A stretch of DNA of 64,000 bases, from NCBI GenBank assembly GCA_012295275.1, contig CM022675.1, positions 3,782,001-3,846,000 on the forward strand. The letters are read 5' to 3'. The stretch is from Chrysomallon squamiferum. Its lineage: Eukaryota; Animalia; Mollusca. A program made the translations under genes and the position numbers. Below, piece by piece: positions 7,301-12,741 of this stretch. The notes beneath the pieces are model-generated. The model was not told the DNA's origin. It made no database searches and saw only the letters and a program-made list of their open reading frames with translations. The stretch's first letter is position 1; every line of letters begins with the position of its first letter.

Positions 7301-10300
7301 TGTATGTCTATAGACCATATAACTTTTGGGAGGATACCATATTGCTATATATGTCTGTTCGTGTATTAGGGGTGTGTCTAGTGTATTATGCATGTTTTTT
7401 ATGCGTGTATTTATATATCTAACCATGTATCTGTGATTCTGTATGTCTGTGTACTGCTTTCTATAATAGATTCTTCTTTTTAATCAAAAACTGACCCCCT
7501 CCACACAATACTTACAAACTTGACAGACAGCAGTAAATTTACTCGATGAATTTTTACGAATGTTTTCACTGATGTTTATCAACCTTGCAATACTTAGATG
7601 AGTTGTTCCATAACTGCTGGGACGATTTGTAACAAGATTTCCTTAAAAAAAAAAAAAAGATTAAAATTTGTTTTCTTTTCAAGGCTGTGAAATATTTGAA
7701 ATCTACCGTTAGGCAGCGTCATCATACATAATTATATAATCATGTTTATAATAAGGGCAGTTAGCAGACAGAGAGATAGTTAGACAAGAGAAAGATAGAC
7801 AGAAGTTTTCTAAGTGTCTTTAAGTGTGTACGTATTTCTATACATTTGTGTATTTGTATGTGGCTGAACATTTTGCCAACGAACAATTAACAGAGTGGAT
7901 ATTTTGACATTTTTAATTATTATATCTTCTTTTTAATTTATTATTATTATTAATATTATTATTGTTGTTGTTGTTGTTATTTTTATGTTTGTGGGTTATG
8001 TTACACTGGCTGACTTAAAGTGGCAGTCCTCTTTGTCTTCCAGGCTGTACACATCCATGTCTCTTCAAAGTGGACAAGAAACTGAGAAAGAAATTTATCT
8101 GTTTCATCACCGAGACAGAGTCAGTTCAGCTTTCAGCATCTTCACTGAAATACGCCTGCCTCGGTCATCTGTATTTGTACATAGCCTCGTTATATAACAC
8201 ATATATCTTAATAAACTGTTTAAATACTCATTACATAACACATGTATCTTAATAAACTGTTTAAATCCTCATTACATAACACATGTATCTTAATATAGAA
8301 TTTAAATCCTCATTACATAACACATATATCTTAATATAGAATTTAAATCCTCATTACATAACACATGTATCTTAATATAGAATTTAAATCCTCATTACAT
8401 AACACATGTATCTTAATGTAGAATTTAAATCCTCATTACATAACACATATATCTTAATATAGAATTTAAATACTCATTACATAAAACATACATCTTAATA
8501 TAAAATTTAAATCCTCATTACATAACACATATATCTTAATATAAAATTTAAATACTCATTACATAACACATATATCTTAATATAGAATTTAAATCCTCAC
8601 TACATAACACATGTATCTTAATATAGAATTTAAATACTCATTATATAACACATACATCTTAATACAAAATTTAAATCCTTCTAGTTTTACATCATAGAAA
8701 CTATTTGCCAGCTCGACCATTTGTCCATTCGGTTAAATGCCTGTCACTGCAATGTGCGTATATATATATGTTTGTATTTATGTATGTTTGTATTTATGTC
8801 TGTTTGTATGCTTGTAAATATGTATGTTTGCATTTGTGTCCGTGTCTGTACATCTGAGTTTTCTTACCATCAATCCACCTCCATTCAATGTTTCGTTTCA
8901 GTCCAATCCAATAATTTTCCCGCTGTCTGTAATTACTGTTAATCAGTGTTTTCAGCTCTGACTCTGCTGTGTCTGTCAGTTTTGACAAATTTCCACCACA
9001 TTGTACTTTAGCTTCTTTCCACAGTAAGTTTCGTTTTAAAATACATACAGTATTTCTGCAGACATTTCTCATATTGGTTTTAAAGTGTTTTCCTGAAACG
9101 ATGAAAAAAATGTCAGTGAAATTACTCCGTGTATTTTAACAACTCTGCTTTTGATTGTTCTTTTCAAAGTGAACTGATCATGTTACCATTTTGAAATAAC
9201 AAAAATAATATCAGTTAAATGTACACAAATTCAAACATACAAACATACCACTCACGCACAAACGTATATGGTATCAAAATGGAAACAAATAAACAAACAA
9301 ACAAAGAAAAAAATAATAAATAAATAAATAATTACATAAATAAATAAATGAATGAATGAATAAATAAATAAGAAAGTAAGTAAATAAATAAATAAACAAG
9401 ATACTTGGACAAACAGCTGACGTCCACTGTGTTTTACAGACTGCAAATCGAAGGGTGATTTTGTTGTTTTCATATTTGACGTAGCCGCAGTTGCTGTTTT
9501 TACTTGTTCTGCTTTTTACATCTACAGAAACAGGCAGATCTGAAATAAAATATTTCTTTAATATAAAAACAGTGTCTGTTTGATACTACTACTACTACTA
9601 CTACTACTACTACTACTACTACTACTACTACTACTACTACTACTATTACAACTGATATTACCACTACCACTACAACAGCTATTACTACTGCTTCTTCTTC
9701 GTCTTCTTCATCTACAACTATTACTACCATCACAACTACTATTATTTCAGCCAGTATTACTTCTGCTCCGTTTGTACATCAATATCTACAGCAACAACTA
9801 CTACAACGTTTACTGCTAGTATTATTACTACTAGTACTATTAGTTCTACAACCTTACAAACATTACCTTAGCTATTACTACTACTATTTATACTGTCTCA
9901 AATACTATTATTTCTACCACTGCTGCTACTACAACTAGTACTGCTGCTACTATTACTGTTATTACTACTATGACTACTACTTCTACTGAATACTGATTAC
10001 AACAGCTACTACCAATACCACTTTCCGGATCCGATAAGAAAGAAATAAAGTTAAAAATAGAGATAAAAAGCTTACACTTCTACTACCTATATATTATCAA
10101 AATAATATTCTTACCCAATTCATAAACAGAAACAACGTCCGCACCACCACATAACTCGTCATAGGTCCCAGGACAGCGTACTTTGTTTACATTCTTGAAT
10201 GTTGTATCTAACTTAGAGTTTGTTCTATGTTGTGGAAGACTGCAGAAACATTTTCTTCCCTGCAATACGACAGTATGTAACTGAACTTTATTCTTTTAAT

Positions 10301-12741
10301 ATTAATTTTATTATAACTTTTTTACTATAGATAGAGAGAAAAGCAAAGCGAGACAGCTAGGTATAAATAGATATGAATGTTAAACTTTGGTAACTAGGTT
10401 GCACACGGACCAATAGATAGGTAAAAAGAGAGAAGAAAGTTACGTATATATATATAGAGAGAGATATAGATAGATACTCATATGCAGATACACAAATAGA
10501 AACAGAAGGAAACAGAGTGAAAGAGAAAAATAGTGCGTGTTTGTGTGTTTGTGTGTGTGTGTGAGAAAGAGAGAGAGAGAGAGAGAGAGAGAGAGAGAGA
10601 GAGAGAGAGAGAGAGAGAGAGAGAGAGAGAGAGAGAGAGAGAAAGAGAGAGAGAAAGAGAGAGAGGTACGGGAAATGTGTTTGTTCGTTTTCTTGTGAAC
10701 ATTAATCAGTAGGTTCTAATATCTATTTTAAGATTTGTACATTTTGCTTGTTTGTTTATATATCTGTACACGTACATTTTAAATTCAGATTTCTGTATCT
10801 ATGTTTTCAATACTCCATTGCACTACATAATTTATAGAACAGCAAAAAGAATCACCTGTAAACCAAATCTTCTCTTTGTTGTGTCATTACTGTTACACCT
10901 CTGGAAACATTTAAACACACTGTTGTCATGAATAGTAACATGACTGTTTGACACAGTTTGTGACACCGGTATATCTTCAACAAATTTAAACAGAGTTTCA
11001 TTTGTTTCTGAAAGAATAAAATAATAATAAGAAGAATAATAATAAAAAAAGAGATGATGATAATATAAAAAAAATATTACTACTATCACCACTACTACTA
11101 TATTACTACTACTACTATTAATGATAATAATAATAACAACAACAACAACAAACAAACAAACAAATAAATAAATATAAATTTATATTATATACATTTAATT
11201 TTAGAACAAACCTATTAAAATGTGTAGTGGAAAATACAACCTCTCTCTCTCTCTCTCTCTCTCTCTCTCTCTCTCTCTCTCTCTCTCTCTCTCTCTCTCT
11301 CTCTCTCTCTCTCTCTCTCTCTCTCATCATACATACACACACACACACACAGACACAAATAATTAATCTAGTATATTAATATACCCGTCCATATCCAAGG
11401 AGTGTAAGTTTCTGTAGCACCAACCCAGTAAAATTTGTTAGGTTCCATTATTTTCCAGATTTTAGACACAGATTTAGAGTTTCTAACAAGTCTTCCTCCC
11501 TTTGACTGACAGCCAGAATAAACAGCAGACCACCACGACTGGGTCTCATTCAGTATGACGTAACTGTCTGTCATGGCGTCAGCCCATACGTCACTCCAGG
11601 GACCTACGTATTGAAAATATACTGAGCAAAAACATTTAGGGTATTATAGCAATTAGGATATTATAACAATTAGGTATTGTGAAGATCGATAAATTGGCAT
11701 CAAAACTTTGTTATACTTTGTTATACATTAAACATTTTCAGTTTGATTTTACTGGAGTAAATAGAGTGTTGTATGTTGAACGTAAAGTCACAGAGATTTT
11801 ATAAATTCGATATAGTCAGTTAATTATATGTTAAATAGATGTTGTTGTTTTTTAAATTATTATCATCACACTCATTATAATAATTGTTCTTGTTGTTGTT
11901 ATTTATTTATTTATTTATTAAACATAATTAATTTTTATTACTTATTAATAATGTGGTCAAATAAATAAAATAAATAAAAGATAAATAAAAAACAAAAAAT
12001 TAAAATAAAAAAAATATAAAAAGGAAGGAAAACAGAGACAAAAAATCATATTTCAATAATTATAGATCCTTTTTTGCACCTCAAGTTTATGGTTTGATCT
12101 AATACAGTAGCTTCTCATTTTAAAAGAATCATCAGTTAAATGTGTTTCCTTTCTTTCTTTGTTTCTTTCTTGTTTCTTCTTCTTAATGTGATATATGTTT
12201 TATTTGTTATTATTAATTATTCTATTTTATTTTTCATTTTTCATTTTTTTAATAATTTCTTTTAAATAAATTTATACCGTTATAAGCCTCATATCTTTTC
12301 ACCCATAGCCTGTGACAAGTGAAAAAAAAAGTTTTGTGTATGTGTGTGCGTGTGTGTGTGTGTGTATATGTGTATGTATATGTGTGCCTGGGTGTGACTG
12401 AGAGTGTGAGTGAAGATATTTGAATGCAATGCAGAGAATGAAAGACAGAGAAAGGGAGATAGATAAAGACAGAGACAGAGACTGAGATAGAAAGACAGAT
12501 AAAGACACAGAGAGAAAGACAGATTACATATACTAAGCTTATTTTTAACTTAAAATACGTCAGTCTATTTAGTTCTTTTCCTGCTTTTGGTTAATATGTG
12601 TTATATCTGACAGACACACACACACATATAAAAATTACTTGATTTTAACAACTAATGTAAAATCTACTTACTTAATATTTCTGACTGGGTAGACACACAC
12701 ACAAAGAAAATAATAAAAATATTGACAACTGTAGACAACAT
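4394..12741 (-). CDS. Receptor gene A: signal peptide-CTLD(WSC inserted)-CTLD2-Thr stalk-TM-Tyr-rich tail; frameshift in the stalk exon
   Basis: Exons 12741-12672 (ccgccATG, MLSTVVNIFIIFFVCVSTQS), 11603-11385 (SWWSAVYSGC..YWVG..PWIWT), 11007-10856 and 10259-10115 (WSC: CFQRC..FGLQGRKCFC..CPGTYDELCGG..VY), 9539-9405 (NCGYV..C..VCP), 9092-8868 (WKEAKVQC..YWIGL..WRWIDG), 7641-7516, 6115-5907 (stalk, 209 nt, TAA at 6050-6048), 5533-5458 (TM LIGGSVVAVIVVMVTSILIFVW), 5198-4394 (tail). All GT-AG, phases identical to the paralogues. Confidence 0.85.
6733..7002. mobile_element. Non-autonomous hAT-like MITE in gene A intron 7
   Basis: Degenerate TIRs (tatagtttttcaac.. / ..gttgaaaaccagcg) with subterminal GGGGTT/TCGCG motifs; 8-bp TSD-like pair GCCTACAG (6725-6732) and GCCTGCAG (7003-7010). 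The roughly 950-bp block containing it is absent from the same intron of gene B. Confidence 0.6.
7045..7190 (-). mobile_element. Mutator/MULE transposase fragment
   Basis: Peptide FSDYMVVNWIDDEASFPLPLWNHHETDEPRTNN resembles the Y...W...F...WN...RTNN motif next to the catalytic Glu of MULE transposases; truncated on both sides. Confidence 0.6.
8186..8679. repeat. 41-bp minisatellite, about 12 copies, gene A intron 6
   Basis: Unit CTCATTACATAACACATGTATCTTAATATAGAATTTAAATC recurs every 41 nt (8227, 8268, 8309...). Confidence 0.95.
10562..10665. repeat. (AG)n microsatellite; matching arrays in the gene A/B introns (11241-11324, 20227-20360, 20937-20998) and further arrays at 13101-13185, 27955-28031, 63105-63172
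   Basis: Direct inspection. Confidence 0.95.

Follow-up and report, generated by a model that had tools for sequence, protein, structure and literature searches.

A gastropod and nemertean gene family with a WSC domain nested in C-type lectin-like sequence and a candidate cross-domain pairing of its lectin halves

Related domain architectures and the Chrysomallon locus

The canonical C-type lectin-like domain (CTLD; Pfam PF00059) is marked by a W-x-x-A-x-x-x-C helix, a WIGL-like motif, a W-x-W motif and cysteines at the C0-C0′, C1-C4 and C2-C3 positions, which form the textbook disulfides of the fold (PMC6468738). These features are shared by a family of genes of which four copies, A to D, lie on the minus strand of a 64,000-nt stretch of Chrysomallon squamiferum DNA (contig CM022675.1, positions 3,782,001 to 3,846,000), hereafter the window. 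Unlike the canonical domain, the family carries a WSC domain in the long loop, shows neither EPN/QPD nor WND at their sites, and has lectin halves that likely pair across domains. We regard it as highly probable that the four genes belong to a real, expressed receptor family which is present in two phyla and in which WSC is nested in CTLD sequence.

Yeast Wsc1 (7PZ2) and human Kremen1 (5FWS) share with the nested domain the PAN/apple-type WSC fold and the CGG motif, and in Wsc1 the domain likewise stands on a membrane-spanning cell-surface protein (PMC9024836). Glycan binding has been reported for some fungal WSC proteins, and the WSC domain of Kremen binds protein (PMC9024836). In contrast to both, the gastropod WSC lacks the beta-1/L5 disulfide and is embedded in CTLD sequence instead of being free-standing. 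Polycystin-1 is an extracellular protein with both CTLD and WSC. The two domains are also combined in one extracellular protein among the multidomain bivalve CTLDcps (PMC10140915) and in P0050, where, unlike in the nested window family, WSC lies ahead of an intact CTLD; in its available text, PMC10140915 names WSC once among bivalve CTLD architectures and does not describe nesting.

The CTLD long loop is already known to vary or swap. Snaclec heterodimers exchange a CTLD segment, the long loop, between subunits (PMC6468738), and in collagen IV NC1, which has a CTLD-like fold, a segment is swapped between subdomains (PMC3779223). The swap proposed here would differ in being intra-chain, in residing in a membrane receptor, in comprising strand beta-5 or the whole C-terminal half, and in having WSC at one crossover. 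Assignment to the snaclec type, a secreted alpha/beta heterodimer with a long-loop swap only, was rejected for a predicted single-chain membrane protein, and the likeness is an analogy only. The open-access literature searched yielded no description of WSC inside a CTLD, of a permuted CTLD receptor or of a whole foreign domain inserted in the CTLD long loop, which is not proof of novelty.

All coordinates are numbered from the first letter of the window, which is AT-rich (GC about 0.29), and all exons given are on the minus strand. In gene A, exon 1 (12672..12741) encodes a predicted signal peptide, as judged from an ATG, a hydrophobic stretch and a phase-1 GT donor. Exon 2 (11385..11603), assigned with HHalign of the family profile, encodes a first N-terminal CTLD half (N-half) with the helix-1 cysteine C1, YWVG and W-x-W; exon 3 (10856..11007) and exon 4 (10115..10259; CGG motif, Pfam WSC 47-82, E 0.033) encode the first and second halves of WSC; and exon 5 (9405..9539) encodes a C-terminal CTLD half (C-half) with C2, C3 and C4 and without WND. 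A second split CTLD follows, with its N-half (C0-C0′, C1, YWIG, W-x-W) in exon 6 (8868..9092; Lectin_C 4-60, E 3.5e-6) and its C-half in exon 7 (7516..7641), where C4 is kept and C2 and C3 are lost. The remainder comprises a Ser/Thr stalk exon (5907..6115; 209 nt, out of frame as assembled, with a stop at codon 380), a predicted transmembrane (TM) exon (5458..5533) and a Tyr-rich cytoplasmic tail exon (4394..5196, 5′ end approximate).

Exons 2-5 of gene A show AG/GT ends throughout and a single open frame, with phases of 1-1 (exon 2), 1-0 (exon 3), 0-1 (exon 4) and 1-1 (exon 5); every ectodomain intron is in phase 1 save the one within WSC. The order of lectin N-half (exon 2), WSC (exons 3-4) and lectin C-half (exon 5) and the phases are identical in all four genes, and 3′ of exon 5 lie the second split CTLD (exons 6-7), then the Ser/Thr stalk, the predicted membrane helix and a tail in which Tyr motifs recur. 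Genes A to D are predicted to encode type I membrane receptors.

The nested WSC domain and the lectin halves around it

A profile made from the four window copies of exon 2 retrieved 96 proteins, eight with the full order of N-half and WSC and one with a partial order, and ten of the 12 matches of a second homologue search were family members. Those named belong to Gigantopelta aegis, to four Haliotis species and to a nemertean, Lineus longissimus, and all are annotated 'uncharacterized'; the window genes cluster with the Gigantopelta proteins at 38-50% identity. A word-based search with exon 2 alone found no homologue among 553 candidates, and whole-protein alignment gave 2 matches only among 7,997 proteins scored. 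These searches brought up no member from bivalves, annelids or brachiopods, and their sensitivity was too low to call absence. In gastropods the family is expanded and transcribed, with its members left unannotated, and it extends to nemerteans.

Pfam matched exon 4 to WSC (PF01822) at 47-82 in all three genes tested with E 0.005-0.03, which is under the curated cut-off (gathering score 27.8). Scores were 14.8-17.6 for the exon-4 pieces of the window, which are half domains only, 15.7-22.5 for whole gastropod homologues and 32.1 for Lineus. Comparison of a family profile with yeast Wsc1 (7PZ2) gave E 4.4e-7. AlphaFold2 (AF2) models of the exon 2-5 equivalents, compared with Wsc1 and Kremen, reached Z 8.0-8.8 for Gigantopelta and Z 10.1-10.9 for Lineus, and the modelled WSC was superposed on 7PZ2 and 5FWS with a root-mean-square deviation (rmsd) of 2.3-3.9 over 81-94 residues. 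The CGG motif is present in exon 4 of the window and the WSC/PAN fold in the homologue models; all eight of the usual WSC cysteines are found in Lineus, and six of them in the four window genes and most gastropod homologues. As modelled, the insert of 84-106 residues is a WSC-fold domain. The first and last strands of the WSC topology are adjacent (PMC9024836), which makes the domain suited to insertion in a loop.

For the lectin halves, exon 2 of gene C matched Pfam Lectin_C over its first half only (profile 3-58 of 107, E 4.7e-5), exon 2 of gene A alone gave no Pfam match, and the family N-half profile aligned to a CTLD profile with an HHalign probability of 98.7. ESM Atlas labelled exon 2 as Lectin_C (0.94) and, for the Lineus stretch, returned leads under 0.9 only. 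An independent CTLD profile, for which 194 domains were drawn from the 80 non-family matches, matched Lineus with positions 5-89 ahead of WSC and 88-134 behind it. Together, the Lineus N- and C-halves scored 68.7 bits, compared to 45.4 ± 2.7 bits with the C-half shuffled, and none of 200 shuffles scored as high. When exons 2 and 5 of the window genes were subjected to this hidden Markov model test, 46-104 of 200 shuffles scored as high, so that exon 5 is not above shuffles; only 3 of the 18 proteins tested had three or fewer shuffles as high. The family C-half profile aligned collinearly to that of the CTLD C-half (E 0.0046), a result equalled by 0 of 60 local nulls and by 1 of 60 global ones; against the whole CTLD profile, the C-half had an HHalign probability of 0.6. 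Across the eight homologues aligned, from gastropods to the nemertean, the core Trp, Gly and Cys of exon 2 and C2 of exon 5 are invariant. By sequence comparison, exon 5 is probably a CTLD C-half by descent; it is so called because homologues, Lineus in particular, score, the signal of the window genes having decayed.

Over residues 26-214, among which WSC occupies 83-164, the AF2 model of Gigantopelta exons 2-5 was superposed on a whole CTLD in 45 of the 46 matches at ranks 5-50 (Z 3.7-5.4, with an rmsd of about 4 Å and mostly 86-103 residues aligned), at a predicted local distance difference test (pLDDT) score of 30-73 in its CTLD part, i.e., low confidence. A wide structural search with the Lineus model (mean pLDDT 59) gave no CTLD among the 31 matches listed, and Foldseek recovered WSC and no significant CTLD with both models.

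One explanation of these data is that the gastropod flanking halves are degenerate, without a true CTLD fold, and that WSC is the sole well-folded module. This would conform with the failure of window exon 5 to exceed shuffles, with the low pLDDT outside WSC in both models, and with the absence of C2 and C3 from exon 7 in all four window genes, both of which are retained in the Gigantopelta, Haliotis and Lineus homologues. We nevertheless consider degeneration improbable in view of the invariant exon-2 and exon-5 residues and of the collinear C-half profile; moreover, the models drew on alignments of little depth (18-22 rows).

At the calcium-site positions, all four window genes lack both the long-loop EPN/QPD and the WND of beta-4, and the EPN that gene A does carry lies upstream of the WIGL-like motif. 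The CTLDs are, hence, likely to be scaffolds or protein-binding surfaces. In Lineus, loop sequence is retained on both sides of WSC, including a Y-x-N-W-like motif, which indicates insertion and not replacement.

RNA contigs covering exons 2-5 (three runs of one study) revealed GT-AG joints, and one 624-nt contig of a C/D-type paralogue joins exons 2, 3, 4 and 5 in order; no skip from exon 2 to exon 5 was seen among the joints listed. D-type transcripts, matched to contigs by depth in four runs, all of one study, have exon 5 joined to 6 and exon 6 to 7. It is very improbable that the WSC exons are skipped or part of another transcript, making the arrangement an artefact of the gene model. Alternative splicing does exist in the family, as Haliotis rufescens RefSeq isoforms of one gene (P0102, P0081, P0103, P0101) skip exon 5, exon 6 or both, but WSC is dropped in none of the isoforms compared, two phyla share the order, and the 624-nt contig largely refutes such an artefact. 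Phase-1 half-domain exons may thus be mixed by splicing.

Much of what a sequence-only reading had put forward for this locus holds. The order of N-half, WSC and C-half with its phases in four genes was borne out by the exon maps and the RNA contig, exon 2 does encode a CTLD N-half only, and the position of WSC directly after W-x-W, with the C-half behind, is recovered in Lineus. The expectation that Pfam-type scans would annotate the composite only in part was confirmed in the Pfam scans. Domain scans count the family as a partial lectin, and surveys of mollusc lectin repertoires are, therefore, likely to miss or mislabel its members. The assignment of exon 5 as the missing C-half stands through its homologues and not through the window exons themselves, and its C...C...C pattern is complete in three of the four genes, gene D having Tyr at the last position. 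Replacement of the canonical sugar-binding loop gives way to an insertion, together with disappearance of the EPN/WND residues. The inserted module may bind glycan, as that reading has it, or protein, as does the Kremen WSC. Exon shuffling, deduced from phase-1 flanks, keeps its phases, but the argument is weak because nearly all ectodomain introns, including all those flanking, are in phase 1.

Pairing of the lectin halves

By default, sequence order reads as one CTLD from exons 2 and 5, out of which WSC loops, and an ordinary second CTLD from exons 6 and 7. The cysteines point to another arrangement. The gene D ectodomain has 12 cysteines: six in WSC, C2-C3 in exon 5, C0-C0′ in exon 6 and, left over, C1 of exon 2 and C4 of exon 7; C4 of exon 5 is substituted by Tyr and C1 of exon 6 by Phe. 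In D-type transcripts, cysteine is absent at both lost sites and C4 of exon 7 is present. Tabulation of C4 (exon 5) and C1 (exon 6) in 19 proteins revealed both to be kept in 17 and both to be lost in two, with no single loss; P0001, which ends after exon 5, P0082, without exon 6, P0099, a tail fragment, and duplicate isoforms were left out. The double losers are gene D and H. rufescens P0113, with identical Tyr/Phe replacements, and the two losses are independent, a tree grouping them being rejected (approximately unbiased test, p-AU 0.0006). The kept/lost/lost/kept pattern was found in none of 79 ordinary adjacent CTLD pairs, and co-loss of C1 and C4 within one domain was seen in 13 of the 178 domains of ordinary arrays. 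The joint absence of C4 (exon 5) and C1 (exon 6) implies that the two CTLDs likely exchange C-terminal parts.

One Haliotis clade (5 of the 19 proteins) has lost C0-C0′ and gained two cysteines that are absent from the other 14 proteins, one three residues before C4 in exon 5 and one late in beta-1 of exon 6. We take these two positions to be cross-strand neighbours in a CTLD, in a register that could not be confirmed from the data. Strand beta-1 and strand beta-5 of a CTLD are antiparallel neighbours with adjacent termini (PMC6468738), so that a hairpin between exons 5 and 6 would be natural.

On this evidence we lean, with slightly more than even confidence, towards an interlocked pair of CTLDs, in which exon 5 would partner exon 6 and exon 2 would partner exon 7. 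The substitutions suggest that beta-5 of exon 5 lies in the exon-6 domain and beta-5 of exon 7 in the exon-2 domain. The swap would involve no less than strand beta-5 and might extend to the entire C-half, both of which the cysteine data fit alike. If true, the interlock would be a natural case in which evolution has fixed a swapped fold of tandem domains, betrayed by cysteine co-loss.

Several observations weigh against the interlock. There are just two independent double losses; the gene model of P0113 is without most of exon 2 and may be decaying, and conversion between genes C and D over exons 2-5 could have restored C1 in exon 2 of D. C1 or C4 has been lost singly from 13 of the 178 ordinary domains. 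The proposed beta-1/beta-5 register found no such cysteine pair in 194 ordinary domains and a weak covariation trend only. The short spacing from C4 to the next Trp, 16-20 residues in 6 of the 19 proteins, is not unique, since a spacing of 17 is found in one ordinary protein (4 of 68 pairs). The Gigantopelta AF2 model uses exons 2 and 5 for its CTLD match, with exons 6-7 absent from the model.

Two further items were set aside as evidence. The missing C4 of H. asinina P0082 was rejected as support, since the gene model is without exon 6 and C4 alone has also been lost from 8 of the 178 ordinary domains, and linker length was judged weak and not discriminating. Separately, the unrelated multi-CTLD protein P0034, in which four pairs have a mere 17 residues between C4 and the helix Trp of the following domain, may be a further candidate for permuted pairing.

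Simple nesting, with exons 2 and 5 as one domain, is the main rival reading, though less likely than the interlock. Besides being the default, it agrees with the Gigantopelta model, which aligns exons 2 and 5 to 45 named CTLD chains among the matches ranked 5-50, and with the Lineus equivalents, which score as one CTLD with no shuffle as high. The CTLD region of that model is of low pLDDT, the Lineus model listed no CTLD match, and profile scores are additive, so that they cannot tell which halves pair. Simple nesting would also leave two unpaired buried cysteines in gene D, which is intact and expressed, a coincidence repeated in Haliotis. The disulfide between exons 2 and 5 expected in the sequence-only reading is, thus, probably wrong, cysteine co-loss pointing to exons 5-6 and 2-7; its view of exons 2 and 5 as a single CTLD fold is weakly favoured by the Gigantopelta model and not by that of Lineus.

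If the interlocked pair involves a whole-half swap, exons 5 and 6 would form a circularly permuted CTLD, and the long loop of an outer CTLD from exons 2 and 7 would carry WSC plus the permuted domain. Such a lophotrochozoan Russian-doll ectodomain, which we put forward tentatively and with somewhat less than even confidence, would let phase-1 exons have the inner domain spliced out whole. The Haliotis isoform X4, in which exons 5 and 6 are both skipped, lacks exactly this proposed inner domain and is compatible with it; X4 fits simple nesting too.

As to origin, a two-exon CTLD of phase 1-1 was probably duplicated in tandem, and a WSC cassette, also phase 1-1, probably entered the existing long-loop intron. 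CTLD genes, several of fish and mammals among them, commonly have an intron downstream of WIGL (PMC514892), and the intron between exons 6 and 7 lies one codon off the position equivalent to the intron between exons 2 and 3; together, these fit insertion of a cassette into a pre-existing intron. The receptor would probably serve calcium-independent recognition at the cell surface, the putative ligand being glycan or protein, with WSC displayed at the long-loop pole or tip atop a mucin stalk and with tail Tyr motifs presumably acting in signalling or endocytosis.

Paralogues B to D and other features of the window

Gene B extends from exon 2 to the tail over 13872..21270, with exon 2 at 21270-21052, exon 3 at 20711-20560, exon 4 at 19884-19740, exon 5 at 18524-18387, exon 6 at 18113-17889, exon 7 at 16149-16024, the stalk at 15498-15382 and TM at 14947-14872. 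Its signal-peptide exon 1 was not found; a 200-N gap lies upstream at 21942-22141.

Gene C (25718..31294) comprises exon 1 (31294-31228), exon 2 (30434-30210), exon 3 (30052-29916), exon 4 (29529-29400), exon 5 (29138-29004), exon 6 (28736-28512), exon 7 (28325-28185) and TM (27191-27116). As assembled, its tail has a frameshift at about 26220, either an assembly error or a genuine break. From run X5, 441 contigs, rich in variants, fell on gene C at 28900-30500, hinting at a large paralogue family; their summed depth is not copy number.

Gene D (34526..40834) has an intact 737-aa frame in 10 exons and is without C4 of exon 5 and C1 of exon 6. Its exons 2-7 lie at 39927-39703, 39318-39182, 38712-38583, 38347-38213, 37801-37571 and 37282-37157, respectively. 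Synonymous divergence (dS) between genes C and D is 0.09-0.11 over exons 2-5 and 0.43-1.08 over exons 6-7, and this mosaic suggests gene conversion or exon exchange between the paralogues. The ratio of non-synonymous to synonymous change (dN/dS) among the window paralogues involved too few changes to place selection.

In gene A, the premature stop caused by the frameshift in the stalk exon (6115-5907) would yield a secreted ectodomain; as in gene C, this may be an assembly error or a genuine break. The intron between exons 6 and 7 of gene A contains tandem units of ~41 bp at about 8190-8680, as read by eye. Another gene A intron holds, at about 7340-6940 on the minus strand, a GC-richer fragment that gives the impression of a decayed DNA-transposon frame.

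Away from the receptor genes, one open frame at 55600-54359 on the minus strand matches MGAT2, N-acetylglucosaminyltransferase II (Pfam E 3e-121), and an intron-free frame of the dienelactone hydrolase family (Pfam E 3e-44), with a GC of about 0.49, lies at 60880-60128 on the same strand.

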